The position numbers were made by a program, and so were the translations under genes. Of a stretch of DNA of 47,552 nucleotides, positions 5,453 through 45,731 are shown in pieces. The stretch covers positions 1 to 47,552 of the forward strand of contig CAZYHL010000001.1 in assembly GCA_964646795.1 (NCBI GenBank), given 5' to 3'. Under the pieces are notes generated by a model. The model was not told the origin of the DNA, made no database searches, and saw only the letters and a list, made by a program, of their open reading frames with translations. The number at the start of each line of letters is the position of its first letter. The first letter of the stretch is position 1. This DNA is from an uncultured Syntrophomonadaceae bacterium. Lineage in GTDB: Bacteria; Bacillota; Dethiobacteria; PWVN01.

Positions 5453-5892
5453 ACCAACGCACTATCGACCTCATCAAACAAAACGAAGGCTTCTCTGCCA
5501 CAGTCTATCTTTGCCCTGCAGGGTTTCATACAATAGGTTACGGCCACAACTGCGACGCTCACGGTGACCTCAATGCTTACATCAATCGCACTCTTTCTCC
5601 AGCAGAAGCTGATGATCTTCTTCTCTCCGATATAAGTGATGTTGAAAAAGATCTTACAAAATTTGTACGAACTTTTGATTCCCTAGATGAAGTACGCCAG
5701 GGTGTACTCATAGATATGTGCTTCAACTTAGGCATTGGTGGTCTGAAAAATTTCAAAAAATTTCTGAGACATTTGCTAGTTGGTAACTACAGATGGGCTG
5801 CACGTGAGATGTATGACTCTAAGTGGTTTAAGCAAGTCCCTCTTCGTGCCTCCAAGAATATGTTCATGATCCTCACAGGAGAATACTTCTAA
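5449..5892 (+). CDS. endolysin, GH24 (T4-type) lysozyme
   Basis: IDLIKQNEGFSATVYLCPAGFHTIGYGH matches the E..G..Y.D..G..TIGYGH lysozyme signature. GTG start in a GTGA overlap, preceded by GAGGAGG. Confidence 0.85.
   Translation: MNQRTIDLIKQNEGFSATVYLCPAGFHTIGYGHNCDAHGDLNAYINRTLSPAEADDLLLSDISDVEKDLTKFVRTFDSLDEVRQGVLIDMCFNLGIGGLKNFKKFLRHLLVGNYRWAAREMYDSKWFKQVPLRASKNMFMILTGEYF
5649..5673. repeat. PAL25 copy inside the endolysin CDS
   Basis: agatcttacaaaatttgtacgaact, coding KDLTKFVRT. Confidence 0.9.
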
Positions 5893-6377
5893 TGGGTGGC
5901 ATCTTGACAACCATAGGCTCTATCGCTGGAGGAGGGGTTAAAGACCTTGTCCTCGGCGTCTTAGATCGTATCAAGTTAGCCCCTGAAAAGAAGGCCGAAG
6001 TTGAACTTGCCATGGCTAACAATGCCCTCGAGTTGCAAAAGCTAGACTTCGAACTCCAGAAGAAACAACAGGACTATGAGCAATCTGTTACTGAATCTCA
6101 GAAGGCAATCATCGTAGCTGAGATGTCTCAAGGTGATGCCTACACAAAGAGAGCTCGTCCAACAATAGTCTACGCTGGTCTCGTCTTTGTAATCCTCAAT
6201 TACATAGTCCCTACCTACATGGGTTTCTTTGCAAACAAAGCAGTCCCAGAAGTCCCTATTCCTGCTGATTTCTGGTGGGTATGGGGAGGTGTTTGTGGTA
6301 CCTGGATCGTAGGCCGCTCTATGGAGCGTCGCGGTATAGGTATGTCTAAAACTACTAAATCCCTCACAGGAGTTTAA
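5892..6377 (+). CDS. holin candidate (resembles the GTA-type 3-TM holin family)
   Basis: The N-terminal LDRIKLAPEKKAEVELAM segment, coiled coil, then ARPTIVYAGLVFVILNYIV and further TM segments match my recollection of PF11351-like holins. Adjacent to the endolysin. Confidence 0.55.
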   Translation: MGGILTTIGSIAGGGVKDLVLGVLDRIKLAPEKKAEVELAMANNALELQKLDFELQKKQQDYEQSVTESQKAIIVAEMSQGDAYTKRARPTIVYAGLVFVILNYIVPTYMGFFANKAVPEVPIPADFWWVWGGVCGTWIVGRSMERRGIGMSKTTKSLTGV

Positions 6378-6683
6378 ATGTCTCATATCCTCGAAAGGTT
6401 TTTCACCCACTTTGCTGCATCGACTTTCTTAACCCTAGCATTTTTCTACGCACTTAATTATTGGCTTAGAAGAACATCCAAAGTCGGCATCTGGCTATCT
6501 TCTCGCAAAGAGCATTTATTAGTAACTTCAGCATTACTAGTCTTCTCCCTAATGACTCTTCGAGAGCCTTTCGATGTTTACTTTGGTACACAGGTATGGT
6601 ACAAAGCTATCACAGATCAAGTCTCCTGGTTCTTAGGTGCAGCAACTAGCGTATATGGCCTTTACAGATATAGTAAATCCTAA
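6378..6683 (+). CDS. multi-pass membrane protein (lysis accessory?)
   Basis: Three hydrophobic segments. AGGAG RBS. Follows the holin. Confidence 0.6.
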   Translation: MSHILERFFTHFAASTFLTLAFFYALNYWLRRTSKVGIWLSSRKEHLLVTSALLVFSLMTLREPFDVYFGTQVWYKAITDQVSWFLGAATSVYGLYRYSKS

Positions 6684-6734
6684 TGACTTAGCTAGAATTC
6701 TCCGAGTACCACACGACGAACTTTGGAAAGTTAG

Positions 6735-7190
6735 ATGAAGTCACTACTTCTTCTCCCATTCTTAGCAATTAATCTATTCGCAGGTGAAGTATGGCTAGCG
6801 TGGGATCCTTCTGAAACGTCAGAAGTTACTGGGTACAGAGTATATATAGGTACAGCTTCACGTAACTATTCTGGATTCAAAGATGCTGGAAACGCCCTCG
6901 AATACAAGGCCAAAGACCTTCCGAATGGAATAGTCCATTACTTCGCGGCGACCGCCTACGACGCCGACGGCAACGAAAGTGACTATTCCAATGAGGCCTC
7001 AACCAAAGTTATCACCTGCGACCTTAACAACGATAGTTCAGTAAATGTCCTTGATCTCCAGCTCATGATAAACCTTATCCAAACCAACCAGCTCACTCAA
7101 GCTCACGATCTTAACAAGGATAGTGTATTAAACATTCTAGATTTCCAAACTCTCATAAACGTCTTATCAGGAAAACAGTCGTGTCGATAG
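6735..7190 (+). CDS. secreted FN3 domain protein with C-terminal dockerin-like module
   Basis: Signal-peptide-like MKSLLLLPFLAINLFAGE. FN3 signature LAWDPSE..VTGYRVYIG...YFAATAYDADGNESDYSNE. Two dockerin-type repeats, DLNNDSSVNVLDLQLMINLI and DLNKDSVLNILDFQTLINVL. Confidence 0.7.
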   Translation: MKSLLLLPFLAINLFAGEVWLAWDPSETSEVTGYRVYIGTASRNYSGFKDAGNALEYKAKDLPNGIVHYFAATAYDADGNESDYSNEASTKVITCDLNNDSSVNVLDLQLMINLIQTNQLTQAHDLNKDSVLNILDFQTLINVLSGKQSCR

Positions 7191-7201
7191 GAAGTGAAAC
7201 T

Positions 7202-7474: not shown

Positions 7475-7788
7475 TGAAAACTATCCTGTTTGTCAATAAG
7501 GAAGTTGCTTCACTCCAATGTGACGTACTAACTTCAGGGAGGGTAACTTTGATAGTCGATGCAGCAAAAGAGAAATCAATCCAGGTTTCTCCCCTCCCTG
7601 ATGGTTTCATACGGATTATGGTATTCGGAATGAACCAGAATTTATTCTCTGGAGCTTTTGTTCACGTAGATGACTTCATCTCCTCTATCACCAATGTGGT
7701 GTGTGCAGATGCTAACGCTGGTAATGCTCACGCTGTTATTTCGAAGATATCGTCCCCAGCTAATGTTGTTGCTGAGACCGTTAAATAA
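7474..7788 (+). CDS. hypothetical beta-rich protein, tentatively cohesin-like (104 aa)
   Basis: The pattern LQCDVL..G.V / DGFIRIMVFGMNQNLFSGAFVHV / ITNVVCADANAGNAHAVI is reminiscent of cohesin beta-sandwich segments. This rests on eye-level similarity only. Confidence 0.3.
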   Translation: MKTILFVNKEVASLQCDVLTSGRVTLIVDAAKEKSIQVSPLPDGFIRIMVFGMNQNLFSGAFVHVDDFISSITNVVCADANAGNAHAVISKISSPANVVAETVK

Positions 7789-7799
7789 TTAAACGAACT
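7775..7799. repeat. degenerate PAL25 copy abutting the ATG at 7800
   Basis: agaccgttaaataattaaacgaact. The right arm and following bases (acgaactatgaa, 7793-7804) are repeated at 10683-10694. Confidence 0.5.
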
Positions 7800-8543: not shown

Positions 8544-10666
8544 AGACACTATTAATAGCCCTCTACCCTTATAACGCGCAAGGCCTTGATGCCTGGCTCG
8601 ATCATTCCTCTGGAATGACCTACACAGCTGCTAAAAACGCTGGATGTGACATAGACTTCCTCGACATGAAGTCCCTCCACAACGATGAACAACTCAAGTC
8701 AGCTATGCAAGGCTACGATCTCATCGCATTCGGCCTAAAAAGCTCATACTACCCATTAGGCATGAAAGTGATTCAATTCGCTAAAGCTCAAGGATCTAAA
8801 ACCATCGTAGGAGGATACCACGCTACTGCAGCTCCCGAGGAGCTTCTCGAAAACCCACTTATCGACTACGTCTTCCACAAAGAAAGTGAACTAACTTTCC
8901 CTCAATTTCTGCTTAACCCTGCCCAATTCCCCAGGGAAATCTTCGGCGAGTCTGTACAAAATTTGGACGAACTACCATTCATGGACCGTTCTATGTTCCG
9001 CAGTCCACTAGAACCAGTCCTTTCCTGGTGGCATGGCGGACAGAGGGCATTCATGACTTCCATCATCACTAGTCGTGGATGCCCTTATCGCTGTGCTTTC
9101 TGCCAGCCAATAGAAGATAATCACTTTGGGAAGAAACTTAGACGTAGGAGTGTAGATTCAGTAATTGAAGAACTTGCACTTCTCAAGTACTTATACAATC
9201 CAGACTGCTTAATGATCCATGATGATACCTTTCTACTCCAACGTAACTGGCTTGAAGAATTCATAGAGAAGTATCCTCAAATAGGTCTCCCTTTCTGGGC
9301 TGCGGGACGTGCAGATGGAATCATCAAGTATGAAGACTTGGTTCGTAAATTAGTAAATGTAGGCTGGGAACTCATCTCTGTCGGCTTCGAAAGTGGCTCT
9401 CAAAAAATCCTCAACAAGATGAAGAAGGATACCACTGTCGAGCAAAACCTCGAAGCTGCTCGCATCATCAAGTCCACTGGAGCAAAGATATATGCCAACT
9501 ATATGCTTGGCCTTCCTTGGGAAACCAAAGCAGATGTTCAAGCTACAATGTCCATGGCTGACGCCATCGATGCAGAGATGCCTTCATGGGCCTACTTCAC
9601 TCCCTACCCTGGCTGCGAACTTGCCAACGAGATCAACGAGAACAACTGGTCCCTCCTCGACCGAAACAACTACTATCGTCTTCCTTCAGGTGAAAAGGTA
9701 ACTAATGTCGACTACTCTTATCTTCTCTCGTGTCTTAGAGGATTCAGGGAATCCAGGCCTGCACTACTTACAGACATTATCATTCCAACCTATGAAAATG
9801 AACAACTCACAGTGGATTGCTTTGAATCTATCAAGGCTTCTACTACTCCAGGAACTTATCGAATCATCTGGGTGGACAACGGATCTAGAAACTTCGAGTT
9901 GGCTAAACGAGCTATTAGAGATATAGAGCATTTATCATACAGGTTTGACACTAATCAAGGTTTCGTAGTTGCAGTAAACAAAGGCCTCACTCTCAGCGAC
10001 GCACCTACAGTAATGCTCCTCAACAACGACACTCGCGTGTACAAAGGGTGGCTAGACAAACTCATTCGTATCCTCTGGTCCGACGAGAAGATTGGCATTG
10101 TAGGCCCACTAACAGGCTATGCACCTCCAAGCAAAGAAGACTCTCCTCATTGCCTTAATCTCCACAAAGATCTTCTCCCTCCTGAGGCTCGAGAGTGGAA
10201 CTTTGAAAAGCTTAATGAAGCATTAGAGAATGGCTACACTGGTCGTACTGCAGAAGCACCATTCGTAGCTTTCCTCGCAGCACTCATTCGTCGAGAAGTA
10301 ATCAACGTCATAGGCCCTCTTGACACCAACTTCAAACACGGAATGTGGGATGATGTTGACTATAATCGTAATGTAAGGAACATAGGCTACAAGTGCCTCT
10401 ATGCCCTTGACACAGTAATCTACCATCGTGGGCGCAGCACTTTTAACATGATAGAAAAAGAGGAAGGCTTCAATGTAGGCAAGCTCCTTGCCACAAACAA
10501 AGAGTACCTTGATCGCAAGTGGAATGATAACGTAGTGCTTGGTGTACCTAAGAAATCCATAACAGCTTCTCCAACTCTGAGCATACTAACTCGTCGTAAC
10601 TCCTGGCGAAGTCGTATAGAAAAGCCTAAATTCGTAACTGATTACGATAAGCCTAAAGACCTATAG
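8540..10666 (+). CDS. fusion protein: B12-binding-like domain + radical SAM core + GT2 glycosyltransferase (708 aa)
   Basis: ATGA overlap start. N-terminal Rossmann-like segment (DLIAFGLKSS...TIVGGYHATAAPEELL). CxxxCxxC cluster GCPYRCAFC (nt 9080-9103). C-terminal IIIPTYENE...IIWVDNGS...LLNNDT...WDDVDY GT2 motifs. Confidence 0.8.
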   Translation: MKTLLIALYPYNAQGLDAWLDHSSGMTYTAAKNAGCDIDFLDMKSLHNDEQLKSAMQGYDLIAFGLKSSYYPLGMKVIQFAKAQGSKTIVGGYHATAAPEELLENPLIDYVFHKESELTFPQFLLNPAQFPREIFGESVQNLDELPFMDRSMFRSPLEPVLSWWHGGQRAFMTSIITSRGCPYRCAFCQPIEDNHFGKKLRRRSVDSVIEELALLKYLYNPDCLMIHDDTFLLQRNWLEEFIEKYPQIGLPFWAAGRADGIIKYEDLVRKLVNVGWELISVGFESGSQKILNKMKKDTTVEQNLEAARIIKSTGAKIYANYMLGLPWETKADVQATMSMADAIDAEMPSWAYFTPYPGCELANEINENNWSLLDRNNYYRLPSGEKVTNVDYSYLLSCLRGFRESRPALLTDIIIPTYENEQLTVDCFESIKASTTPGTYRIIWVDNGSRNFELAKRAIRDIEHLSYRFDTNQGFVVAVNKGLTLSDAPTVMLLNNDTRVYKGWLDKLIRILWSDEKIGIVGPLTGYAPPSKEDSPHCLNLHKDLLPPEAREWNFEKLNEALENGYTGRTAEAPFVAFLAALIRREVINVIGPLDTNFKHGMWDDVDYNRNVRNIGYKCLYALDTVIYHRGRSTFNMIEKEEGFNVGKLLATNKEYLDRKWNDNVVLGVPKKSITASPTLSILTRRNSWRSRIEKPKFVTDYDKPKDL
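8949..8973. repeat. PAL25 copy inside the radical-SAM/GT2 CDS
   Basis: agtctgtacaaaatttggacgaact, coding ESVQNLDEL. Confidence 0.85.
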
Positions 10667-16484: not shown

Positions 16485-18443
16485 ATGCCTTACATTGTAA
16501 CATCAGATCCTGCATCTTGGAAAGGGATGGATTATAGTAGGAAGAACTATGACTATAATTATCCAGAAGGACTTGATCTCAAACCAGGATCTAAGCTTCA
16601 TGACTCTATACGTGATAAAGTCTGGCAACGTGCCAGGGCATCACGTAATGAGATACAGAAGAGATTTAGTTCTTGGAAGGAAATAGATAGGACGTTGACA
16701 TCTTATATTCCACTTAAGGAAGTAGAGCAGATTTCTAAAGACGCTGATTCCACAAAGCCTGTTTCCATAGTATTTCCTTACTCGTATGCATCCCTTGAGG
16801 CAATGCTCACTTACTTAATGCAAGCTTTCATTCAAGACCCTATTTGGAAATACGAAGGTGTAGAGAGTGATGATACAGTAGGGGCTGCATTACTTGAATT
16901 GTTAATCAGGCTCCACTGCATCGAATCCAAAGTAGCACTCAACCTGCATACACTCTTCAGGGACGGTATGGCCTATGGCATTGGAGCTGCAATTCCAGAG
17001 TGGAATCGCAAGTTTGGGAAGAAAGCAGTACGTTCATCTGTAACTACTACTTCTCCAATAGGTACCATGTCTGACGAGTCCATACAATTTTTGGATGATC
17101 TATTATTTGAAGGGAATGCGCTAAGTAATATAGATCCCTACATGCTTCTCTTAGATCCTTCTGTTTCCAGTGTAGATATTCAAAAGGGAGAATACTTCGG
17201 CTGGGTTGAACGAGACAACTATATGAACTTGCTTTCCGAAGAAGGTCAGCAAGATTCAGGTATGTTCAATGTCAAGTATCTACGCGACAAGCAGAATAAA
17301 CGATCTGTGTTTGCATTAGATCAGAGTGATAGGGAGGTCAAGTTCGGCTCAGCTACTAACCTATATGGCATGGCTGATGTGACAAATCCAGTGGATCGTA
17401 TTAAGATGTACATCACCTTAATACCTTCCGAGTGGGATTTGTCTGACTCTGATTATCCTGAGAAGTGGTTATTCGAACTTGATTCTGACGACATAGTAAC
17501 GCGTTGTGAACCTGCCAATCACAATCACGGGATGTATCCTGCAGCTGTGATCTCACCAGAGTATGACGGCTACTCTATGACCCCCATAGGTAGATTGGAG
17601 ATAGCTTATGGATTACAGAACACACTGGACTTCCTCTTCAACTCCCATATCAGTAATGTACGTAAAGCCATCAACGACATGCTCGTTGTGGATCCCTACT
17701 TGGTCAACATCGAAGACCTCAAAGATCCTCAGCCTGGAAAGCTTATACGTTTGCGTAGGCCTGCCTGGGGACGTGGAGTAGATAAGGTAGTCCAGCAACT
17801 AGGAATTCAAGACATAACTCGCCTCAATGTCCAAGATGCAGGGATTGTTCAGAGCATGATGGATAGGATATTGGGCACTGATTCTTCATTGCAGGGTGTT
17901 CAACGCCAAGGTGGACCTGAGCGTCTTACACTCGGAGAGTTCCAAGGTACTCGTGCTTCATCTGTAAGCCGATTGCAGAGAGTAGCCCAAATAATCAGCC
18001 TCCAAGGCATGTCTGACATTGGTAAGATGTTTGCAGTTCACACTCAACAATATACCACTAAGGATACCTATGTTAAAGCAACTGGCAGGTATGCTGAGAA
18101 ACTTATCAAAACTTTTGGCAACGATAGGATCAAAGTATCTCCTAGGGATTTAGCTATTAGTTATGATGTCATACCTCATGATGGTTCAGTTCCAGGTGCA
18201 GGTTTCTCACCTGCCTGGTTGGAGATGTTTAAGACTATTGGGACGTCAGAGTTGTTGGCACCTCAGTTTGATGTGGTTAGACTATTCGAATATATAGCTT
18301 ATCAACTAGGCGCTAAGAACATAGATGATTTCAAAGCTAAATCAAATCAAATCAATCCAACTATGATGCCTGACCAACAGGTAATGTCTGAGGTACAAAA
18401 AGGTAACATGATACCTACTTCACAAATGGAGTCTGCTGCATGA
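16485..18443 (+). CDS. portal protein
   Basis: 652 aa, positioned after terL and before the scaffold/capsid genes. GGAG RBS. Confidence 0.75.
   Translation: MPYIVTSDPASWKGMDYSRKNYDYNYPEGLDLKPGSKLHDSIRDKVWQRARASRNEIQKRFSSWKEIDRTLTSYIPLKEVEQISKDADSTKPVSIVFPYSYASLEAMLTYLMQAFIQDPIWKYEGVESDDTVGAALLELLIRLHCIESKVALNLHTLFRDGMAYGIGAAIPEWNRKFGKKAVRSSVTTTSPIGTMSDESIQFLDDLLFEGNALSNIDPYMLLLDPSVSSVDIQKGEYFGWVERDNYMNLLSEEGQQDSGMFNVKYLRDKQNKRSVFALDQSDREVKFGSATNLYGMADVTNPVDRIKMYITLIPSEWDLSDSDYPEKWLFELDSDDIVTRCEPANHNHGMYPAAVISPEYDGYSMTPIGRLEIAYGLQNTLDFLFNSHISNVRKAINDMLVVDPYLVNIEDLKDPQPGKLIRLRRPAWGRGVDKVVQQLGIQDITRLNVQDAGIVQSMMDRILGTDSSLQGVQRQGGPERLTLGEFQGTRASSVSRLQRVAQIISLQGMSDIGKMFAVHTQQYTTKDTYVKATGRYAEKLIKTFGNDRIKVSPRDLAISYDVIPHDGSVPGAGFSPAWLEMFKTIGTSELLAPQFDVVRLFEYIAYQLGAKNIDDFKAKSNQINPTMMPDQQVMSEVQKGNMIPTSQMESAA
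17077..17101. repeat. PAL25 copy inside the portal CDS
   Basis: agtccatacaatttttggatgatct, coding ESIQFLDDL. Confidence 0.8.
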
Positions 18444-25333: not shown

Positions 25334-26434
25334 ATGAGTACTAACTTTCTTTCAGTAAGTCCTTTATATATCCACTCCGAAATTGGAGGTGAGGTATTTA
25401 ATCTATCTATTGCTGTAGATCCTTTAGAGTTGACTTTGGCTCAGGAAGGATCTTCATTAGTAGCTGGATTTGTAGTGGACTGCTTACCTCTTGAACTTAC
25501 GCTATCACTCCTATCTGATTACACTACTCTTGAGAATGTCAAGGATAATTGGATTAAGTGGTCGAAGATAGGTAGTTTAGACTTCACCATCGACCAGTCT
25601 AATATTGCAGGTGAACGTAACTTAGATTGGAAGGGCCTAGTCTATGACATTAAGAAGCTAGGCAACAAGTCCTTTGTAGTCTACGGGGCTAATGGAGTTA
25701 CAGTATTCCAACCTTCCACGTTGAAGAACTATAATGTCTCTACCAGGTTGTCAGGGCAAGATAGTTACCAAATCACACCTACTTTTGCTATAGATACTTT
25801 GTCAAGAGTAGGTGTGTTGTGGAAAGGTGCAGTAGCTGGTAATGAGTCACAGCACTTCTGGATTGATAAGAAGGATAGGTTGTGTACTATGACTGGTGAA
25901 GGGCCTAAGATACTTGATTATTCTGAGTATCTGGAAACCCTCACTAATCCAGTAATGAGCTTTGATGAAGAGACAGGGTTAGTATATATTAGTGATGGAA
26001 CTTATGGTTTCATATATAGTTCTAAAACTAATTCATTTGGCTCAGGAATTGAGTTTATTACTGGAATTGGGAAGCAGAGTGGGACTAGTTATCTTGCAGC
26101 ATCTGAAGAATTTGAGATGCCTAAGTTTGAGATCTGTACAGATACATATGACTTTGGTACACGTAAGCCTAAGACAATTCAGCAGATTGAACTTGGAGTG
26201 AATCTTAGTTATAAGTTAGAAGTGCAGGTTGAGACTAGACTTAACAACTTTGATCCATTCAAGAAGAGCGCGTGGAAACTTGTTAATCCATCAGGTATAG
26301 CGCATATACCTTGCTTTGGTGTTGAGTTTCGTTTCCGTGTAAGGTCTCAAATCTACGAGTGGTTCACATTAGATTATATAAAAATTGTAGGAACTGGTCA
26401 TGGCATCAGGCCTGGATTGGAGTTGAGTGAGTAA
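25334..26434 (+). CDS. hypothetical tail protein (366 aa)
   Basis: ORF track. GAGGAA RBS. Confidence 0.65.
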   Translation: MSTNFLSVSPLYIHSEIGGEVFNLSIAVDPLELTLAQEGSSLVAGFVVDCLPLELTLSLLSDYTTLENVKDNWIKWSKIGSLDFTIDQSNIAGERNLDWKGLVYDIKKLGNKSFVVYGANGVTVFQPSTLKNYNVSTRLSGQDSYQITPTFAIDTLSRVGVLWKGAVAGNESQHFWIDKKDRLCTMTGEGPKILDYSEYLETLTNPVMSFDEETGLVYISDGTYGFIYSSKTNSFGSGIEFITGIGKQSGTSYLAASEEFEMPKFEICTDTYDFGTRKPKTIQQIELGVNLSYKLEVQVETRLNNFDPFKKSAWKLVNPSGIAHIPCFGVEFRFRVRSQIYEWFTLDYIKIVGTGHGIRPGLELSE

Positions 26435-31800: not shown

Positions 31801-34800
31801 TTTTGATAGAGTAATGTATGACTATGGAAGTGATAGTGTAGCTAGATTATTAGGAGGTAAATTTGTAGATAACCCTTCTTCAACTAAGGTCCAATCAGTC
31901 TCCCTCCAACCTCTCAAATCCAAAGCTTCAGGTGGGTTTAGTTTATATAGTGGAGTGCCTGTTGATAGACTAGAATCCTTAGGCAAAGACCTCACTAATT
32001 ACTACAAACGTCTCAGTGAAGCAAAGAGTAAGTCTATTGCTGAGATGTTTAGAGAGGCTAAGAAGATAGGTATAGCACACTGGTTAAATCAAAGTGGGAA
32101 TGCACGAGCACTTATAGAAGCAGAAGGTGATAAAGCTAAGGAGGTATTACAAGCTACAGCATTAGCAAGAGGTGGGCATTCCCTAGCAATTGCAAGATAT
32201 AAGCAAGCAGATAAGGAAGTCAATAGTGGACTGTCTAAAGCAGAGCAAGAGGCTAAAGATAGACTTATTATGGCCGAGCGTGTGCTGGCAGTTAATAAGA
32301 CTTCGCCTAAGACAATTAAGAATGTTCCGAAGGCATTCTCAGTAGAGAATAGTACTGATATTATAAATGCTATTGGCTCAAAGAAGATCAATGGTTCAGA
32401 AGATCTTACTCCTCAAGCAGAGTTGTTAGTTCGCAAAGCTAAGGATACTTACTTTGATGCAAATAGACAAGCTACTAAGGATCTTGCAGATGAGGGGATT
32501 ATAGGTCGTCAAGAGGAGAGGGATTTAGTAGCTAATAATTATGCAAAGTTTAGTCCAGTTACTAAACAGACAATAGACAAGATAACTGGGAATAGTGGAG
32601 TAGGCAGAACAAGCCAAGGGGCGTTTGATCCACTTAAGAGAATTAAAAAGGGTGGAAATGATGAGGTATTGTTGGAGACTAACTCAAGACTAACAATGCT
32701 TGAGTATTTTGATCAGGTATACACAGCTATTGCGATTAATAGAGCTAAGAGAACAATGGCTGACTTTGCTAAGAGTACTCCGGAGAATAAGTTTTCGTGG
32801 GTGGATACTTCGAAAGTGAAAGTGCTTGATGCTCAACCTAGTGATGTTACAGGATTGAAGAGAAGTATTAAGATCAAGAGATATGAGCAAGGAGTTAGTG
32901 ACTATGAGTTTAGGCAACTATTAAAAGCTAATGGGATAAAAGAGAAGTTTAGTGCTACTAAGAATATTACAGCATTGAGAGCTGTAGATAAGGCACTTGG
33001 GGATGTATCCAAGGGATATGAGAAAGTACTTACGCATCCTAAAGGTTGGGTTAGAGACTATTATCTTGAAGATGGAATTAAGAAAGAGATGTGGTTGGAA
33101 CCTTCGTTTGCTAAAGAATGGATGGCTGAGACGAAGGAGACTTCAGGGGCGTTTGCGAAGTTTGTGAGAGTGTTTAGTGGATCGCAGATAGTTAAGTTAT
33201 TCGCTACTGGCATTAATCCTGCATTTGCAATAGCTAATTTACCAAGGGATGCCGTGCATGCTTGGTTTGCTTCCAGAGTTATGGAAGGTGATAAGTGGAA
33301 GAGTTTGTATAGTATGAGGGCTCCTAGAGCTGTAGGACAGATGGCTAGAGATTATAAGGACGTATTTGTAGATGTAATGAAGGAGAAGGGAGTTATTGAC
33401 GACTTCATTGAAGATGGAGGAGGAAGTAACTATCTTTATACGCAGGGTAGGCTAACAGATGTTAATGCTAAGAATAGAGTTAGACTTGAAGGCCCATTTG
33501 ATGCCCTATATGACTTCATGAGTGGAATCAACAGACGCTCTGAAATGCTCACGAGGATGGCTATAAGAAATAGAGTTATCCGAATGAGGGCTAAGGAACA
33601 AGGCTTGACAGTGGAGCAGGCTAAGAAGGATCCTAAGATTCGTAGAGAGGCTTCGTTTGCAGCTATTGATCAGATGAACTTTGGTGAAGGTGGGTCTATA
33701 GCTAAAGCACTTGATAATGCCATACCTTATTTAAAGGCAAGGATTGTAGGTACTAGATCGTTGTGGAGAGTATTTGAACCTGGGAGTGGGACAGCTAAAG
33801 CATCAGCAGTAAAGTTAGGGCAATTTGCTGCTTTAGTTACTGGACTGTATCTATTGAATAGGCAGAGAAATCCTCAAGCTATAGATGATCTCAGGGATGA
33901 TCCTAGATCTAAGAACTCTTTTACACTTGTGATGGGAAAAGATGCAGGTGTTACAGTTGATGGTCAAAAGAGGCATGTATTCTTTAGAGCACCTTTGGAT
34001 TCTGGACAGGCGTTCTTCAAAGTACTATTCGAATCCATAGCAGGTAAAATGCTTGGGGATGAAATAGATCCTACAAAAATTGTACGGTCTTTGAAAGATG
34101 CACTTCCGGCAGATATTAGTAATTTGCCTCCCACAGCGCAGGGGCTGATAGGGTATTATACAAATACTAACATATGGTCAGGTAATGAAATATGGAAGGG
34201 GTATGAAGGGCCTATTCCTTACAAGCCTCCTCAATGGATGACTGGGGATAAGGTGGGAGGGAGTAATCTGGAGTACACAAAAAGGACACCTGAGATATAT
34301 AAAGACCTTGGTGATCTGACTGGCCTTAGTCCTGAGAGGTTAGGTTATGTGATACAGAGTTATTTAACTAATGATAATCTCTATTCTCAGTTGACTTTTA
34401 GTATGTATGACAAGATCTTTCATGGATTAGATGATGATCAGAAGAAACAGTTGTTAGCTGAGTCTATATCAAGATACCCAGGAACGAAGAGGTTCTTTGG
34501 GTTAACTAATCCAGCCTCCCAGGATATAAAGAAAGCTGAAGAGATTAACTGGAGGAGAATAGGGATTAAGGCAGAGCAGAATCAAGAGCTTGATAGGCTG
34601 TTAGATAGTTACCTTGCAGGTGGGAAGGTTACAGGAAAAGAGATAAATGAGTTCATTAGTAAACAACCTGACAAAGCAGACCAGGAGAGGTTAGCAGAGG
34701 ATGTGAAGAAGACTATGTCCTTGAAAGACTTACCTAGTGCAGGTTGGTGGAGAAAGCTGATGAAGATGGACTCACAGGGAAGAGCAGAGGCATTTGTTGA

Positions 34801-34986: not shown

Positions 34987-34988
34987 TA

Positions 34989-39476: not shown

Positions 39477-39486
39477 TTTCTTCTCC

Positions 39487-39511
39487 AGTTTATACAAAAT
39501 TTGTAGGAACT
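39487..39511. repeat. PAL25 copy (intergenic)
   Basis: agtttatacaaaatttgtaggaact. The right end overlaps the minus-strand TAG stop at 39510-39512. Lies 10 nt upstream of the PolA ATG. Confidence 0.9.
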
Positions 39512-40835
39512 ATTTATGCAACAAGTTATGTGCTTTAACTAGAAAAGCATCCTTGTACTCACGACTCTTTTCAAATCCGAGTGCGCTGATGTTAAGTTCT
39601 GCTGCAGCAAGAAGTCCATTGCCACTTCCTAGGAATGGGATTAGTAAACGTGAACCTGGCATAGCAAAGGTCTCGTAGACTTCCCTCATTAATGCAAGTG
39701 GGCGTTCAGTAGGGTGGGTCTTCTGTGAAGGTGGAGTAGGTGCATAGTGGAAGACATTGGAACGCCCAGCCATGTTGATTACTGGGCGGCCTTTGTATGC
39801 GTAGAAGAACATTTCGTAGGAGTTGGCTAGGTGGATGTTAGGATTGTTAGTCTGACCTGGGCTAGTCTTAGCCCATATACCAGGAATGCGACGACAGTTG
39901 AAGCCTGCTCTATGGATCATCTTGAAGACTATGTTAAACCAAGGGTCTGGACCGAACCAGCATATGAGCCAAGAGTTATCAGTCATTACTCTGTAGCATC
40001 CCTTAAAGAGTTGTTCTAGGAATTCAGGATAAGCATCAGAGTCTATCTCGTTGTAGGATTCAGTGGTGTATTGGGAGACTGATTCCTTCTGCTTGATGTC
40101 CATTAGTTTGATGCCATAGGGAGGGTCGATTTCTACAGTGTGAAATAGCCCATCAGGGAGTTCTTTGACCCCTTGGAAGAAGTCCCTAATGATGTACGCA
40201 TCGTTGAGTTTTTGCAGGGTGACGGACATTCCTTTTTGTTCCATCTCTGAGACGACTTGTTGCTTTGCAATAGCCTCAGACATTTTGTTGATTACTTTGG
40301 ATGCATCTGAAGCGGTTTTGCACTCGGTGAAAAGTTCAGGGTGCTCGTCAAAAAGTTGGGCACGTTTAAGTGCTTCACTTACTTCAGTACGTGACTTTGC
40401 TCCAATAGCCTCAGCTGTTTCCTTAGTTCCCCATCCTTCAGATGAAGGGCCAGGAGCTTTGACACCATAGAGTTCTTGGTTGAGCCTGTGGATCTTGGAA
40501 GTTAGTTTATCCTTCTCAATCCAAGTCATCTCTTTACGATAGAGGTTTTCAGACTCCTCAATGATTGCCATCTCGAGTTCGTTTAGTTCTCGTTCATAAA
40601 TACGAGCAGGGATGTGAGTACAGCCTGGTTCGGTGGAGAGGACTGAGAATCGACGACCTCCAGCAAGGAGACGATAAGTACCGTCGTGCATGAGACGCAG
40701 TGCAAGTGGAGCGATTAGGCCACTCTTCTGCATGTTTGCTCTGAGGTCTTCAATATCTCCCATATCCTCACGAGTGCGATCTTCTACTATAATTTTTGAG
40801 ATTTCTACCATTCCTACTTTGCCAACATCTATCAT
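39510..40835 (-). CDS. ParB-like nuclease domain fused to an N6/N4 DNA methyltransferase
   Basis: N-terminal ParB/Srx-like LIAPLALRL..DGTYRLLAGGRRF. Motif IV DPPY (VEIDPPYG) precedes motif I FLGSGNG (beta-class order). Confidence 0.85.
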   Translation of the reverse strand: MIDVGKVGMVEISKIIVEDRTREDMGDIEDLRANMQKSGLIAPLALRLMHDGTYRLLAGGRRFSVLSTEPGCTHIPARIYERELNELEMAIIEESENLYRKEMTWIEKDKLTSKIHRLNQELYGVKAPGPSSEGWGTKETAEAIGAKSRTEVSEALKRAQLFDEHPELFTECKTASDASKVINKMSEAIAKQQVVSEMEQKGMSVTLQKLNDAYIIRDFFQGVKELPDGLFHTVEIDPPYGIKLMDIKQKESVSQYTTESYNEIDSDAYPEFLEQLFKGCYRVMTDNSWLICWFGPDPWFNIVFKMIHRAGFNCRRIPGIWAKTSPGQTNNPNIHLANSYEMFFYAYKGRPVINMAGRSNVFHYAPTPPSQKTHPTERPLALMREVYETFAMPGSRLLIPFLGSGNGLLAAAELNISALGFEKSREYKDAFLVKAHNLLHK

Positions 40836-41050
40836 TCATCTTCTCCTATCAATTCTAACAACTCTTGTTTCATTTCATCTGTTAATTGTGTAAAGTCGAA
40901 AGTCTTAGCAGGCTTCGACTTGGATGGTGCTTTAGATGTGGATTTCTTAGTTTCTCTACGACGTAGGCGAGTTTGCCTTATGAGTTCTAAGGCCTCATCA
41001 TTGTCCATAGAGAGGATTGATTTGTAGGGTAGATCGTCAAGGTTGGACAT
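40832..41050 (-). CDS. hypothetical basic/acidic small protein (72 aa)
   Basis: ORF track. ATGA overlap with the methyltransferase start. Confidence 0.6.
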   Translation of the reverse strand: MSNLDDLPYKSILSMDNDEALELIRQTRLRRRETKKSTSKAPSKSKPAKTFDFTQLTDEMKQELLELIGEDE

Positions 41051-41306
41051 TTTTGTCCTCCATATCTTTAATTAACTCATCTGCATGTTTCATAGATTGA
41101 ATCAAGTCAGATGGTTTAACTAACTGTGCTGTCATAGCAACGATGAACTTGTCACCATGAAGTTCGATTTTATCTAGGACGTCATCTAGGATGATGCCGA
41201 ACAAGGCTTTCTTAACTCCGTGAGCATCCAAGAGACGTTCGACACGAAACTTTTGCTCTTCAGAGATTTCGAAACTAAAGCGGGGTTTGTAGTCTTCATT
41301 TGACAT
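41037..41306 (-). CDS. putative ribbon-helix-helix DNA-binding protein (89 aa)
   Basis: N-terminal PRFSFEISEEQKFRVERLLDAHGVKKALFGIILDDVL fits a beta-strand/helix/helix (Arc/CopG-like) pattern. Confidence 0.4.
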   Translation of the reverse strand: MSNEDYKPRFSFEISEEQKFRVERLLDAHGVKKALFGIILDDVLDKIELHGDKFIVAMTAQLVKPSDLIQSMKHADELIKDMEDKNVQP

Positions 41307-42696: not shown

Positions 42697-42721
42697 AGTT
42701 TGTACAAATTTTGGATGAACT
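42697..42721. repeat. PAL25 copy (intergenic)
   Basis: agtttgtacaaattttggatgaact. The right end overlaps the minus-strand TAG stop at 42720-42722. Confidence 0.9.
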
Positions 42722-43094: not shown

Positions 43095-43096
43095 AC

Positions 43097-44069: not shown

Positions 44070-44078
44070 TGTGGTCTC

Positions 44079-45080
44079 CTATTGTGGAAATGAAAGTTCA
44101 AGTTTAACTTTAGTTTCAGCCTCCTCAGGGTTCCAAAACTCTTCGCGGTATCCCAGTGGAGGATTACCACATCTTTGAAGTGGATTAGTCCATGATAAAC
44201 AGAAGTCATGGAAGGTACAGCCTCGATAGTCACCACAGGATTTAGGATTCTGCCTGAAGGCAAAGAGCAAGTTATCCTCTATGTTGCAGTGGTGAAGCCT
44301 ATCCATGTCTATCTCTAATTCATTAACTATCTCATTCACGTTCCAGAGCCAAGTGTTCATTTGGCTAGGATTCTTAAACGCTGGTACTCGCCTAAGAGTT
44401 GCATGATACCCTGCCGAACGAGCAGAACTGCCTCTAGAGAGGTACTCAAAGCCTGTTCCACAGAACTCTATGCCGAGTACATCTTCGATTGGATATAGAC
44501 AGTACAGGCAATGGGTGTAAGTTCCATTCTGGATTGAGAGATAGAATTGGTTTGCCCACTGGTCGTTATTGATATACTTGCCAGAAGTACTCTTATGATC
44601 CCAGGAGAAAATCTTCCTATCTTTCAATCTACGAATATGTGAGTCCATTTTGTAATGGAGTTTACGTTTCTCACTGATAGGAACAGTACCTGAGATTTCA
44701 GTGAGTTTTACACCGTCTTTTTCGACAACCTCGTAGTCAATTAGGTCATTGCTCCTTTCTTGGGCGAACTTGATGAGTGCCTTGAGAACGCCCATAGGTG
44801 TCTTCGGCTGATACATTTCATCAGTGGCTTCATCGAACTGGAGGCGGTAGTATTGGAGGAACTTGGTGAAGGCACCATCTACGTCGTTGTAGCCATATAA
44901 CAACTGGTGTTCACGAGCTATATGCCAAGCTTGGCCAAAATACAAGTCATGAGCTGGCAAGTCACGACGCCAGCCTAGAATGTGCTCGTAGAAGTACTTA
45001 CGAGGACAGGAGATATAGGTATCTAACTTAGATGAGTCATAGATATTCCACTCAGGTTTTGAGGTAAGAGGAAAAGTCAT
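44079..45080 (-). CDS. PD-(D/E)XK exonuclease, Cas4/RecB-like with C-terminal Cys cluster
   Basis: N-terminal ISCPRKYFYEHILGW motif. C-terminal C..YRGC.F.DFC cysteines typical of Cas4-like Fe-S nucleases. Confidence 0.75.
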   Translation of the reverse strand: MTFPLTSKPEWNIYDSSKLDTYISCPRKYFYEHILGWRRDLPAHDLYFGQAWHIAREHQLLYGYNDVDGAFTKFLQYYRLQFDEATDEMYQPKTPMGVLKALIKFAQERSNDLIDYEVVEKDGVKLTEISGTVPISEKRKLHYKMDSHIRRLKDRKIFSWDHKSTSGKYINNDQWANQFYLSIQNGTYTHCLYCLYPIEDVLGIEFCGTGFEYLSRGSSARSAGYHATLRRVPAFKNPSQMNTWLWNVNEIVNELEIDMDRLHHCNIEDNLLFAFRQNPKSCGDYRGCTFHDFCLSWTNPLQRCGNPPLGYREEFWNPEEAETKVKLELSFPQ

Positions 45081-45232
45081 TTTACCTCCACTATAACTAG
45101 TGGTCCTCTAGACTCATAGTAGATATCATCTACTAAGAATTCCTGACCTCCACTATCTTGAATCTCAACTGGTAAATCAAGGTCATCTTGACACTGGACT
45201 TTTAGCCTTCTAATGAGTTCAGCTATAGTCAT
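45077..45232 (-). CDS. hypothetical 51-aa protein (below the track cutoff)
   Basis: Manual translation: MTIAELIRRLKVQCQDDLDLPVEIQDSGGQEFLVDDIYYESRGPLVIVEVK. ATGA overlap with the nuclease start. Confidence 0.55.
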   Translation of the reverse strand: MTIAELIRRLKVQCQDDLDLPVEIQDSGGQEFLVDDIYYESRGPLVIVEVK

Positions 45233-45234
45233 AA

Positions 45235-45414
45235 CTATCCTTTCTTCATAAGTTGAATGTCTAGCAATTCTTGAGTGAGGCGGAGGATTCTTTGGTGTAA
45301 TTCTTCTATATAAAGAATAGAAGTATTCAACGATTCAGGAGGCAAGTTATCTTTCATTAGCTTACCTTTAAGTGCATCCCTCCTCCACTGGCGAAGAGTT
45401 CGTTCAGTTATCAT
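45235..45414 (-). CDS. hypothetical 59-aa protein (below the track cutoff)
   Basis: Manual translation: MITERTLRQWRRDALKGKLMKDNLPPESLNTSILYIEELHQRILRLTQELLDIQLMKKG. ATGA overlap with the upstream stop. Confidence 0.55.
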   Translation of the reverse strand: MITERTLRQWRRDALKGKLMKDNLPPESLNTSILYIEELHQRILRLTQELLDIQLMKKG

Positions 45415-45731
45415 TTCCCTAATCCTTTCTGTTTAACCAAGTTAGCCAAACCTTGAGGCATTTCGGTAGTTTTGACGGCATCACTAGAACGTCTATCTCC
45501 AGGATCGAAAGTAGGTGTTGGGTTTAGATCGTTCAATTTTTGTACGAACTTGCCGAATACAGGTGCAGGGACAGGATCTGGAGTGATACCAAGGGATTCC
45601 AAATCCTTAAATTCCTGACAGTTATGTGGAGAGACTAACATGATAACCTTCTCGGAAAGCTGAGCAGTGGCTTTGGTGGTTATCTTGAGTTCTACTCCAC
45701 ACTCGGAACATCGTAGTTTACGATCAGCCAT
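45411..45731 (-). CDS. hypothetical protein with N-terminal CxxC (106 aa)
   Basis: Start revised to the ATG at 45731 (MADRKLRCSECGVELK...), with AGGAG 7 nt upstream. The longer track ORF overlaps the HIRAN gene. Confidence 0.6.
   Translation of the reverse strand: MADRKLRCSECGVELKITTKATAQLSEKVIMLVSPHNCQEFKDLESLGITPDPVPAPVFGKFVQKLNDLNPTPTFDPGDRRSSDAVKTTEMPQGLANLVKQKGLGK
45526..45550. repeat. PAL25 copy inside a minus-strand CDS
   Basis: agatcgttcaatttttgtacgaact. On the minus strand it codes KFVQKLNDL. Confidence 0.8.

Follow-up and report, generated by a model that had tools for sequence, protein, structure and literature searches.

A 25-base two-fold symmetric DNA site, evenly spaced around a phage genome, is maintained at the nucleotide level between and within genes

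The window, which is the whole 47,552-nucleotide stretch of DNA that was analysed, is a phage genome carrying a 25-base DNA site of two-fold symmetry, termed PAL25, in 23 copies. In a scan with a position weight matrix (PWM) the copies score 27-36 bits, compared with 12.5 bits for the next best position, while in Markov-shuffled genomes the maximum averages 4.8 bits and hits above 12 bits number 0.04. A simpler 15-mer search returns 27 matches where 1.3 are expected. The invariant bases of the site are mirror-symmetric (A1 G2 T7 C9 A10 / T16 G17 A19 C24 T25), with a half-site of AGWYCNTMCAWW and an A/T-rich centre; at the variable pairs (3/23, 4/22, 6/20 and 8/18) a change affects just one of the two sides.

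Non-coding DNA makes up 6.4% of the genome and holds the centres of 15 of the 23 copies (P=4e-13). These intergenic copies occupy short gaps between genes, often providing a TAG stop or a ribosome-binding site (PAL25 sites are listed without strand here and below):

868..892, overlapped at its edge by the TAG stop of ORF 891-1121(-); 34.1 bits
1255..1279, GGAGG arm variant 10 nt before the ATG of ORF 1084-1248(-), as its Shine-Dalgarno sequence; 33.8 bits
2469..2493, shares bases with the stop of ORF 2492-3103(-) and precedes the -35 of promoter-like site 2452-2423(-) by 17 nt; 36.4 bits
4018..4042, in the first leftward gene's leader, at about +17 to +41 relative to promoter-like site 4094-4066(-); 32.0 bits
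4590..4614, divergent control region, about midway between promoter-like sites 4440-4413(-) and 4753-4782(+); 29.0 bits
10665..10689, first bases overlap the TAG stop of ORF 8525-10666; 34.2 bits
12603..12627, overlaps the TAG stop of ORF 12371-12604; 35.7 bits
16451..16475, overlaps the TAG stop of ORF 16156-16452, followed by GGAG and the portal ATG at 16485; 31.6 bits
18699..18723, overlaps the TAG stop of ORF 18440-18700; 34.7 bits
21290..21314, after the major capsid gene, adjoining a terminator-like hairpin (21259-21293) and 1 nt before the ATG at 21316; 32.4 bits
34962..34986, convergent junction, overlaps the TAG stop of the giant ORF and is followed by intrinsic terminator 34988-35021; 35.3 bits
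39487..39511, between the ParB/MTase stop, which it overlaps, and the PolA start; 35.0 bits
42129..42153, GGAGG arm doubles as the Shine-Dalgarno sequence of the ATG at 42125(-); 35.5 bits
42697..42721, overlaps the stop of ORF 42720-43094(-); 34.0 bits
47183..47207, upstream of the DNA ligase gene; 33.6 bits

Internal promoters had been suggested in the original prediction, but nothing found here supports this suggestion. No -35/-10 elements occur at a fixed distance from PAL25, the site abuts Shine-Dalgarno sequences and start codons with no room for a promoter, and all six near-consensus host-type promoters cluster at 273-4782, both long arms lacking strong ones. The same prediction also named sites of the operator or roadblock type, and this is the best-fitting class of DNA site for PAL25.

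Eight further copies lie inside genes:

5649..5673, in the lysozyme gene 5407-5892, peptide KDLTKFVRT; 33.2 bits, synonymous-codon P=0.0001
8949..8973, in the B12/radical-SAM/GT2 gene 8525-10666, peptide ESVQNLDEL; 33.4 bits, P=0.00085
17077..17101, in the SU10-like portal gene 16485-18443, peptide ESIQFLDDL; 32.9 bits, P=0.0005
23067..23091, in the 657-aa tail gene 22909-24882, peptide IDPTNNVRT; 33.6 bits, P=0.0002
26371..26395, in ORF 25334-26434, peptide LDYIKIVGT; 26.9 bits, P=0.00035
29869..29893, in the 2034-aa ORF 28859-34963, peptide IVRTKNVRT; 34.5 bits, P=0.0001
34066..34090, in the same 2034-aa ORF, peptide IDPTKIVRS; 32.9 bits, P=0.0001
45526..45550, in the minus-strand zinc-ribbon gene 45411-45881, which follows the HIRAN gene, peptide KFVQKLNDL; 31.4 bits, P=0.00095

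Seven of these had been listed originally, and all seven lie where they were placed, within long ORFs, with the reading frames confirmed and the quoted peptides exact; the copy at 26371-26395 is an addition. The original prediction took the intragenic copies to be the phenomenon itself, but they are a minority (8 of 23) of a mostly intergenic, evenly spaced family.

Synonymous codons were re-sampled for each intragenic peptide and scored against the PAL25 PWM. The re-sampled sequences average -2 to +7 bits, compared with 27-35 bits observed for the eight copies, and the observed scores either reach the attainable maximum or miss it by no more than 1-3 bits (P of 0.0001 to 0.001 per site). Codon choice is thus at or near the best possible match in every intragenic copy, and therefore the constraint acts on nucleotides and not on a shared peptide, as had been proposed; the host proteins are indeed unrelated.

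Whether the element is an insertion or an overwrite relative to homologous proteins had been posed as a check, and the portal and lysozyme alignments, which contain no insertion, indicate an overwrite. In the alignment, the lysozyme copy matches a variable stretch around residues 76-87 of T4 lysozyme. The portal copy falls in a hypervariable loop preceding the conserved FEGN motif and is absent from the closest relative, L001; the copy at 8949 falls in the linker joining the B12-binding and radical-SAM domains; and at 34066 the homologue in L020 aligns gap-free with an unrelated peptide. Peptides of this kind can exist without the element, since the L001 portal keeps ESLQFIDDL and L179 keeps AFAKSLNAL, neither with a palindrome. 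The position of the 45526 copy nonetheless carries the element in L174, L178, L180 and L181, the opposite of what an ordinary protein motif would give. The peptide KF[VI]xxLNxL at 45526 is itself conserved in homologues, so that this site is truly dual-coding and not free of protein constraint.

PAL25 recurs about every 2 kb around the genome, with a largest gap of 4.5 kb (P=0.008) and a coefficient of variation (CV) of spacing of 0.59, versus 0.94 for random placement (P=0.0045). Removal of the eight intragenic copies would leave gaps of 6-14 kb. Given the 15 intergenic sites, the intragenic ones lower both the CV (P=0.0025) and the maximum gap (P=0.012) beyond random placement, and their likely purpose is to fill gaps within long genes. 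Thirteen relatives are also under-dispersed (summed CV 6.38 versus 10.31 +/- 0.90; Fisher p=1e-5). Gene-length structure could account for part of this even spacing.

Related uncultured phages, at least 17 of them, have 25-nt palindromes of their own that share the geometry and even spacing of PAL25 and, in part, its positions. Across this clade, geometry and positions are conserved while the sequence changes; palindromes differ, within an identical geometry, even between close relatives, some of which have capsid genes that are 70-80% identical. The zinc-ribbon site is kept in five phages (the window, L174, L178, L180 and L181) and matches each phage's own palindrome; L174 shares the window consensus and the other three relatives each have their own, the match being tested by leave-one-out PWM for three of the four relatives. 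Among intergenic positions, the copy at 18699 is syntenic in L001 (at 2072), that at 42129 is conserved in L174, and a palindrome lies 3' of the capsid gene, as at 21290, in most relatives examined. Most relatives have a palindrome either directly at the ParB/MTase-PolA junction or no more than about 300 nt from it; in L148 and L142 the distance is about 280-480 nt, and L020 has no palindrome at this junction. The window also holds one divergent palindrome:

7775..7799, no strand, AGACCGTTAAATAATTAAACGAACT, single copy; 12.5 bits to the PAL25 PWM

By consensus comparison it is closer to the L181/L178-type element than to PAL25, and it is located upstream of a glycosyltransferase/radical-SAM cassette that is absent from the relatives.

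Because each relative has its own sequence, we infer that the protein reading PAL25 is phage-encoded. Two candidates lie in the window:

39510..40835, minus strand, ParB/Noc-like N-terminal CTPase (GGRR and ENLYR motifs) and DNA-binding domain fused to an N6/N4 DNA methyltransferase
41037..41306, minus strand, conserved protein of 89 aa in which two helices come after an N-terminal YKPRFSFEISEEQ motif, similar to ribbon-helix-helix (RHH) proteins

The larger ORF matches Pfam ParB_N and N6_N4_Mtase, and Noc over residues 18-202 (E=1e-10); it is a putative PAL25 binder. L150, L156, L163 and Microcystis phage Mel-JY34, in which no 25-nt palindrome family was found, have ParB/MTase homologues too. 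The ParB helix-turn-helix diverges strongly (distance 0.57) between L178 and L181, though their palindromes are almost identical, and correlations between protein distance and palindrome distance are dominated by phylogeny. The 89-aa protein has 157 homologues, none with a Pfam family, and Pfam, PDB and Foldseek searches with it were negative. Its predicted helices fit a beta-alpha-alpha layout, and an hhalign match to CopG is in-register but weak; the putative RHH assignment comes from this sequence pattern.

Could PAL25 act as RNA? An mRNA hairpin might mark a site of processing, stabilise 3' ends or weakly terminate transcription between cistrons, like REP elements or T7 RNase III sites. 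The placement between stop codons and ribosome-binding sites would suit such a role, as would the near-perfect palindromes of some relatives (mean MFE of -13 and -9 kcal/mol in L020 and L013) and the fact that both arms change together between phages. However, only 75% of arm positions pair in the window, and the median hairpin energy is -4.7 kcal/mol, compared with -3.1 +/- 2.5 for random 31-mers and -16 for a perfect palindrome, many copies reaching only -1 to -4 kcal/mol, no better than random. G-U mismatches in the arms are not preferred over A-C mismatches (13 versus 10). Across 17 phages one-sided deviations number 334, and the 45 double deviations show no compensatory excess over the 58 expected under independence. 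Separate canonical terminators adjoin two of the sites, eight copies lie within essential genes, and no Rfam family matches. The arms thus vary independently and fold weakly, so a hairpin is very improbable, as is a role in mRNA processing, which the original prediction already disfavoured as the sole role; PAL25 is neither an RNA hairpin nor a peptide motif, and fits a symmetric protein on duplex DNA. Recombination linkers, another early suggestion, are also improbable. Shared 25-mers might drive cassette exchange between co-infecting relatives, or a mobile mini-element might have spread by transposition. The phage encodes a Sak4-like annealase and an exonuclease, the foreign-type palindrome at 7775 precedes its cassette, and homology between the window and L174 breaks about 13 nt from the copy at 42697, with a different gene upstream. 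The breakpoint evidence is anecdotal, coming from the one case examined. The intragenic copies are overwrites of a length that is not a multiple of 3; terminal repeats, target duplications and a transposase are all absent; and mirror-symmetric base conservation, even spacing and codon-level maintenance would go unexplained.

Two further alternatives retain a protein on DNA. A small phage repressor, such as the RHH-like protein, might block elongating RNA polymerase at every PAL25, silencing or timing the two long arms and leaving the ParB/MTase without a role. This stoperator-like possibility is unlikely, with the following in its favour: sites lie between cistrons and in the first leftward leader (4018), both arms are free of strong promoters, and a palindrome immediately upstream of the RHH-like gene in L143, L152, L154 and L180 suggests autoregulation. 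The outer block AGWTC pairs with a PRFSFE motif and CTWTG with PRLS[IV]D, and there are precedents in Cluster A stoperators and the Cluster O 17-bp repeats, one third of whose copies are in coding sequence (PMC4351075). Conversely, no integrase or other lysogeny gene was found in the phage, the RHH-like N-terminal motif is invariant across phages whose inner palindrome blocks differ, the RHH fold is putative, and a roadblock has no obvious need of even spacing or of a site after the last gene. The least probable alternative is recruitment of a host global regulator, nucleoid protein or gyrase. Many bacterial regulators typically have sites that are likewise palindromic and A/T-centred, and the phage-encoded readers are candidates; yet differing palindromes of identical geometry in close relatives better fit a co-evolving phage protein.

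We give about an even chance to the favoured explanation, that PAL25 is a genome-wide duplex-DNA site for a two-fold symmetric phage-encoded protein, with the ParB/Noc-like protein as first-choice reader. The phage would need sites at intervals of about 2 kb, with no interval exceeding about 4.5 kb. Sites would go into the few bases between genes, sharing bases with TAG stops and Shine-Dalgarno sequences; in over-long genes they would be written into the frame by codon choice and by tolerated amino-acid changes in variable protein segments. The CTPase-HTH-methyltransferase (39510-40835) might load at PAL25 in the manner of ParB at parS or KorB at OB and exert its effect over the flanking 1-2 kb, gating the transcription that enters the two promoter-poor arms from the early promoter cluster, methylating locally, or both. 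The RHH-like protein (41037-41306), alone or as a partner, would be the second choice. The 12-bp half-site of PAL25 is longer than those of parS, the Noc binding site (NBS) and the KorB OB operator. Transcription gating does not readily account for copy 34962, which lies past the last gene of its arm.

Among known systems, REP/BIME elements and T7 RNase III sites are likewise repeated imperfect palindromes between cistrons of polycistronic units, but they form RNA or DNA hairpins with stem conservation, whereas PAL25 arms vary independently and fold weakly. The closest precedents are stoperators, Cluster O dyad repeats and KorB/Noc sites. Cluster A stoperators are asymmetric, transcription-oriented sites of 13-14 bp bound by the monomeric immunity repressor of temperate phages; PAL25, in contrast, is a palindrome, in a phage where neither a repressor nor a lysogeny module was found. 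Like PAL25, with its roughly two dozen copies, stoperators such as the L5 gp71 sites recur genome-wide, one protein having at least two dozen binding sites, most of them in short gaps between genes and overlapping stop and start codons; they are phage-specific, co-evolving with their binding protein (PMC4351075, PMC9283540).

Cluster O mycobacteriophages (Corndog; TGTTCGGNNNCCGAACA) carry more than 30 copies of a 17-bp dyad-symmetry repeat whose function is unknown, many intergenic and about one third in coding regions, unoriented to transcription, in genomes lacking an integrase (PMC4351075). PAL25 is also a short palindrome in many copies, part intergenic and part coding and likewise unoriented, in a phage in which no integrase was found. 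The phages are unrelated, however, and the sequences differ; the Cluster O arms are invariant whereas those of the longer PAL25 are degenerate, the Cluster O repeats are denser at one genome end whereas PAL25 is evenly spaced, and codon-level maintenance, gap-filling and clade-wide co-evolution have not been reported for them.

ParB-family CTPase clamps (KorB at OB on plasmid RK2, Noc at its binding sites, ParB at chromosomal parS) differ from the PAL25 system in the length of their sites, 13-16 bp as opposed to 25 nt, and in that the window's ParB-like protein, a candidate PAL25 binder, has a methyltransferase replacing the C-terminal dimerisation domain; some relatives bearing the ParB/MTase lack palindromes. 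Nonetheless, these systems likewise use multiple scattered palindromes per replicon, some of them intragenic, and their reader is a ParB-fold CTPase that has a helix-turn-helix domain and is encoded by the replicon itself, just as the window encodes a Noc-like N-domain and a DNA-binding domain. Sliding carries KorB as far as 1.5 kb from its dispersed palindromes, an action range per site similar to the spacing of about 2 kb between PAL25 copies (PMC11790492).

A position weight matrix (PWM) built from the copies of PAL25, the 25-nt palindromic element of this phage, scores 23 sites in the window at 27 to 36 bits. The next best position scores 12.5 bits, and Markov-shuffled genomes yield 0.04 matches above 12 bits; this null and the shuffles rule out chance or a simple repeat as the origin of the element. 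Fifteen of the 23 copies are centred in non-coding DNA, which makes up 6.4% of the genome (P=4×10−13), and the inner 15 bp (NTACAAAWTTTGTAN) is never present without the outer blocks. The original prediction placed seven copies inside coding sequences and specified the peptides that they encode. All seven are found there with those peptides, and an eighth, absent from that list, lies at 26371.

The intragenic copies were assessed with a codon test in which the peptide was held fixed and synonymous codons were drawn afresh according to the codon usage of the phage. Scores of −2 to +7 bits would be expected, compared with the 27 to 35 bits observed, and each copy has the best attainable score or falls 1–3 bits below it (P of 0.0001–0.001 per site). 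This re-sampling confirms the prediction that the intragenic copies are conserved at the nucleotide rather than the protein level, and thereby supports its DNA-level reading. Together with the unrelatedness of the host proteins, it rules out a peptide motif.

The ends of the window carry an exact 55-bp direct repeat (1–55 = 47498–47552), which indicates a complete, circularly closed phage genome of 47,497 bp. Its genes form two arms.

Gene arms and selected features of the window
~4,100 through 1, then 47,497 down to 35,100, leftward arm: small early ORFs, then the replication module
Replication module, leftward: ligase, HIRAN protein, PD-(D/E)XK exonuclease, Sak4-like annealase, dCMP deaminase, ParB_N-N6/N4 methyltransferase fusion, UDG-PolA, DUF3987 primase
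4,250–34,963, rightward arm: HTH/TerS-like protein, lysozyme, holin, glycosyltransferases, B12/radical-SAM/GT2 protein, TerL, SU10-type portal and capsid, tail genes, 2034-aa ORF
6735–7190: dockerin-domain protein
7800–8543: GT2/GT92 glycosyltransferase
within 6735–10666: 713-aa fusion of B12-binding, radical-SAM and GT2 domains
36948–39497, minus strand: family A DNA polymerase with an N-terminal UDG-superfamily domain, a fusion kept in relatives

Pfam and PHROG scans of about 50 ORFs out of some 62, the remainder being mostly structural-module genes, revealed no integrase and no recognised repressor. No tRNAs were found in the window. No cultured phage matches it at the nucleotide level, and the closest deposited genome is that of Desulfofustis phage LS06-2018-MD01, with a capsid identity of 53%.

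Several regions of the rightward arm stand out in their own right. The auxiliary gene set at 6735–10666 is unusual for a podovirus-like phage. A lone palindrome at 7775–7799, AGACCGTTAAATAATTAAACGAACT, resembles the element of the related loci L181 and L178 rather than PAL25; it precedes the glycosyltransferase/radical-SAM cassette, which is without counterpart in relatives, and may be a footprint of horizontal acquisition. At 14005–15996 lies a 663-aa ORF that has no Pfam or PHROG match and no homologue in any related locus, and its G+C content of 51%, against ~42% for the genome, suggests recent acquisition. The 2034-aa ORF (28859–34963) at the end of the structural arm has no family match, and a metagenome scan with its C-terminus as query returned nothing. 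Relatives have giant ORFs at the same position, some with weak LPD23 or methyltransferase matches; the product may be, for instance, an ejection protein or a polyvalent protein.

The gaps that hold intergenic copies are almost wholly taken up by PAL25. For nine copies, the AG of the element and a flanking T form the TAG stop codon of the upstream gene, on either strand as the palindrome permits, and in at least two (1255 and 42129) a GGAGG arm variant provides the following gene with its Shine-Dalgarno sequence. The copies are also more evenly spaced than expected: the coefficient of variation (CV) of spacing is 0.59 versus 0.94 by chance (P=0.0045), no gap exceeds 4,525 bp, where 7,700 bp would be expected for the largest (P=0.008), and the smallest is 387 bp versus 90 bp expected (P=0.01). 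Intergenic copies alone would leave gaps of 13.7 kb and 6.1 kb, and six of the eight intragenic copies sit within these. When eight extra sites are placed randomly around the given intergenic sites, the observed CV and maximum gap have P values of 0.0025 and 0.012, and on this conditional test the intragenic copies look like gap-fillers within long genes.

Alignment with homologues, which the prediction proposed as a way to distinguish insertion from overwriting, shows that the portal, lysozyme and zinc-ribbon copies substitute existing codons and that none is inserted. The portal copy occupies a length-variable loop just before the conserved FEGN motif. The lysozyme copy aligns to a variable segment at about residues 76–87 of T4 lysozyme, with a three-residue deletion and not an insertion. 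From these two alignments, we conclude that intragenic copies arose by substitution in tolerant segments. A MITE- or REP-type mobile element is ruled out, as these three copies are uninserted and no transposase was found. The prediction had also held that the same peptide without the palindrome, in homologous proteins of unrelated phages, would mark an ordinary protein motif. In the closest relative, L001 (79% portal identity), the similar peptide ESLQFIDDL stands at this place, encoded by DNA that differs at 9 of the 25 bases and is not matched by the PWM.

The pattern of variation within PAL25 bears on whether it acts as DNA or as a folded transcript. Ten mirrored positions are essentially invariant (A1, G2, T7, C9 and A10; T16, G17, A19, C24 and T25), nine of them fixed in 23 of 23 copies and C9 in 22 of 23. 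Variable pairs are altered on one side at a time, with counts of TA 13, AA 7, TT 2 and AT 1 at pair 3/23, and AT 14, AG 5, CT 2 and CG 1 at pair 8/18. On the transcribed strand there is no excess of G-U over A-C mismatches (13 versus 10). Over the 125 sites of 17 related phages taken together, one-sided deviations from consensus number 334 and double ones 45, against an expectation of 58 doubles if the sides were independent. Predicted RNA folds of PAL25 have a median minimum free energy of −4.7 kcal/mol, compared to −3.1 ± 2.5 kcal/mol for random 31-mers and −16 kcal/mol for a perfect palindrome. These pair statistics and fold energies rule out a hairpin, terminator or RNase site, and PAL25 shows neither the compensatory changes nor the stable stem of the intrinsic terminator/REP-like hairpin class; Rfam contains no matching family. 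Canonical terminator-like hairpins adjoin two copies, at 21259–21293 (after the capsid gene) and 34988–35021 (at the convergent junction), and because these are separate structures, PAL25 is not the terminator itself. At the copy at 21290, the A/T centre provides the T-run of the neighbouring hairpin. Independent half-sites and mirrored invariant bases argue instead for a site recognised by a symmetric protein on double-stranded DNA.

Relatives were gathered by capsid, ParB/MTase (the methyltransferase fusion) and 89-aa protein searches and by a GTDB scan. They comprise dozens of related uncultured-phage loci, 43–52 kb long and organised in the same two arms; when the ParB/MTase protein was the sole query, a search for close relatives found none. 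A distinct 25-nt palindrome, A/T-rich at its centre, characterises each lineage, and at least ten different sequences occur across related genomes while the 25-bp geometry is constant.

Palindromes of the window phage and related loci
Window and close relatives: AGTTCNTACAAAWTTTGTANGAACT
L178: AGWTCRTTTAA...TTAAAYGAWCT
L180: AGWTYRTTYAAWWWTTRAAYRAWCT
L182: AGATCGTTTTGAACCAAAACGAACT
L142: AGWTYMATTGAAWTTCAATKRAWCT
L179: all-A/T version
L020: GCTATGTCCCAAATTGGGACATAGC
L013: CCTATGGAACAAATTGTTCCATAGG
L148, L151, L155, L004, L012 and L002: further variants

Among relatives, the consensus of the window is found only in L001, L174, L175 and L177, and a loosened PAL25 pattern sought elsewhere gave mostly chance single matches. 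The 125 sites of the 17 related loci include 87 intergenic ones (∼70%) and 38 spanned by ORFs, whereas random positions are 75–90% coding. Spacing is likewise under-dispersed among relatives (thirteen loci; summed CV 6.38 versus 10.31 ± 0.90; Fisher p=1×10−5), and certain positions recur across phages: after the capsid gene, at the ParB/MTase-PolA junction, at the convergent junction and upstream of the 89-aa gene. No dispersed palindrome is present in Microcystis phage Mel-JY34, a distant relative that is in culture and encodes a ParB/MTase. In two more distant loci without 25-nt palindromes, L163 and L161, 10-bp palindromes are strongly over-represented (TCGGCGCCGA, with some seven occurrences in 21 kb, and TTAGATCTAA, with some five in 12 kb). 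A 277-kb bacterial contig (CAZUHP010000001.1, a Desulfarculaceae MAG in GTDB) also contains a capsid homologue with 49% identity, some 100 kb in, which may mean that some members of the wider group are integrated prophages, or that the contig is chimeric.

The site at 45526 lies inside a zinc-ribbon gene that follows the HIRAN gene, and the homologous codons are occupied in L174, L178, L180 and L181. In the last three, the site matches that phage's own element in a leave-one-out PWM and uses near-optimal codons (P=0.0008–0.007). The peptides of the window and the four relatives are KFVQKLNDL, KFVQKLDEL, KFIKSLNDL, KFIQNLNKL and KFVKKLNEL; L179 has AFAKSLNAL at this position, without the element. 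The peptide itself is thus conserved, and its DNA follows each phage's own element. Judged from these alignments, the zinc-ribbon site, the most telling case, is true dual coding, with amino-acid change driven by the DNA signal. The annotated ORF (45411–45881, minus strand) probably starts at an internal ATG near 45731, giving a CxxC...HxC zinc ribbon of about 105 aa; its 50 upstream codons overlap the HIRAN gene and are missing from homologues.

Six near-consensus sigma-70-type promoters (perfect TTGACA, 11/12 matches) were located, all within 273–4782. Five are leftward and one is rightward (4753–4782), and five have a TG-extended −10 element. In the remaining 43 kb, comprising the replication and structural arms, no promoter match exceeds 10/12 and matches occur at background frequency. 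One PAL25 copy (4018) spans about +17 to +41 from a near-consensus promoter, and some copies end 1–9 nt before a start codon. No −35/−10 elements occur at a fixed offset from PAL25, and the scanned ORFs include no recognised RNA polymerase gene. The proposal that the copies act as internal promoters is therefore rejected, and PAL25 matches neither the host sigma-70 nor the phage RNA polymerase type of promoter.

Because the sequence differs among close relatives while the geometry is fixed, the simplest reader is a co-evolving phage protein, and two genes are candidates.

Candidate reader genes
39510–40835, minus strand: ParB/MTase, a ParB_N domain (Pfam, E=3×10−7) with GGRR and ENLYR motifs; residues 18–202 match Noc structures (E=1×10−10) over a span that includes the CTPase and the DNA-binding domain; an N6/N4 methyltransferase forms the C-terminal part
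41037–41306, minus strand: 89-aa protein with the N-terminal motif YKPRFSFEISEEQ (PRLSIDLTEDQ in the other group), then two helices

PAL25 thus shares its replicon with a gene for a ParB-fold protein that has nucleotide-binding motifs as well as a helix-turn-helix (HTH) DNA-binding domain. This protein is conserved across the clade, always in the order 89-aa protein, ∼72-aa basic protein, ParB/MTase, PolA. Within the group with the outer palindrome block AGWTC, its HTH segment diverges faster than the remainder (0.5–0.6 versus 0.3–0.45). Between L178 and L181, however, HTH distance and palindrome distance disagree, and the correlation of protein with palindrome distances is swamped by phylogeny, which makes co-variation non-discriminating. 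The 89-aa protein looks like a ribbon-helix-helix (RHH) protein, a putative assignment based on the fit of its family motif, PR[FL]S[FI]x[IL][ST]EEQ, and two helices to that fold. The class of its motif varies with the outer block of the palindrome, and in several phages a palindrome lies directly upstream of its gene. Pfam, a PDB profile search, and structure prediction with Foldseek gave no usable RHH support for this protein, and a Pfam scan of 42 family members returned one weak ParD match. With hhalign, the protein aligns to CopG in register at low probability and weakly to ParD, the CopG and ParD sequences used being approximate. Both genes also occur in loci without a detected palindrome family, where, as L141 demonstrates, the palindrome filter can overlook degenerate elements, and their presence or absence does not separate palindrome-positive from palindrome-negative loci. 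The ParB/MTase and the 89-aa protein are therefore candidate readers, neither of them established.

The confinement of promoters to 273–4782 makes it possible that a protein occupying, or spreading from, sites every ∼2 kb gates read-through into both arms, in the manner of stoperators or KorB. Alternatively, were the ParB/MTase the reader, methylation might be delivered locally. It is conceivable, though on balance improbable, that a CTP-dependent sliding clamp carrying a DNA methyltransferase loads at PAL25 and its phage-specific counterparts, which would then be parS-like sites. Such a protein would load only on DNA with the phage's own palindrome and diffuse 1–2 kb to each side, so that the phage chromosome would be methylated, and hence marked or protected, while host DNA is spared. 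The clamp-methyltransferase reading would account for the need for a site every ≤4.5 kb, for sites inside long genes and for co-divergence of sequence and reader. KorB can slide as far as 1.5 kb away from OB sites (PMC11790492), and ParB-MTase fusions are common in phages without an assigned function (PMC12704722); if true, this role would be the first assigned to them. Another proposal of the original prediction, that the copies are recombination linkers, gains from one breakpoint, between the window and L174 at the copy at 42697, and from the foreign-type palindrome at 7775 ahead of a cassette that relatives lack. Neither observation, however, accounts for the element's symmetry, its spacing or its maintenance at codon level.

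For comparative work, this clade is an unusually clean system, with constant geometry, at least ten sequences, shared positions and statistically even spacing, as well as intragenic sites kept by codon choice and co-evolving amino acids. As the zinc-ribbon gene shows, a DNA signal can drive the replacement of amino acids in a protein. One site per ∼2–4.5 kb is a quantitative constraint for any proposed mechanism, and concrete candidate readers, among them a ParB-CTPase-methyltransferase fusion, are to hand. When genomes of uncultured phages are annotated, such sites can flag the boundaries of genes and cassettes of horizontal origin.

Our literature search found no description of the PAL25 element or of this phage clade. 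Dispersed phage-specific repeats are known from stoperators and Cluster O, and to our knowledge their purpose is unknown outside temperate Cluster A phages. Cluster A stoperators are asymmetric 13–14-bp sites oriented with transcription in temperate phages. PAL25 resembles them in being genome-wide, with 15 of 23 copies intergenic, nine on TAG stops and at least two on Shine-Dalgarno sequences. Unlike stoperators, it is a 25-bp palindrome with mirrored invariant bases, the same on both gene arms, in a genome where scans of about 50 of the ∼62 ORFs recognised no repressor or integrase; asymmetry and repressor-based lysogeny being absent from this picture, a Cluster A-type stoperator is rejected. 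By the tests that define each class, PAL25 is not a stoperator, a hairpin element, a mobile element or a promoter. ParB-family clamps are the known class of proteins that use dispersed, partly intragenic palindromes, and like KorB, Noc and parS sites, PAL25 is palindromic, dispersed, partly intragenic and accompanied by a plausible class of reader. The parS, NBS and OB sites measure 13–16 bp compared with 25 bp for PAL25, whose inner 15 bp, although of matching size, is always accompanied by the outer blocks. Of the phenomena described so far, the 17-bp dyad repeat of Cluster O mycobacteriophages comes closest; it is of unknown function and present in more than 30 copies, one third of them in coding sequence (PMC4351075). 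Although its sequence is not homologous, PAL25 is likewise dyad-symmetric and present in tens of copies (23), eight of which (35%) are intragenic.
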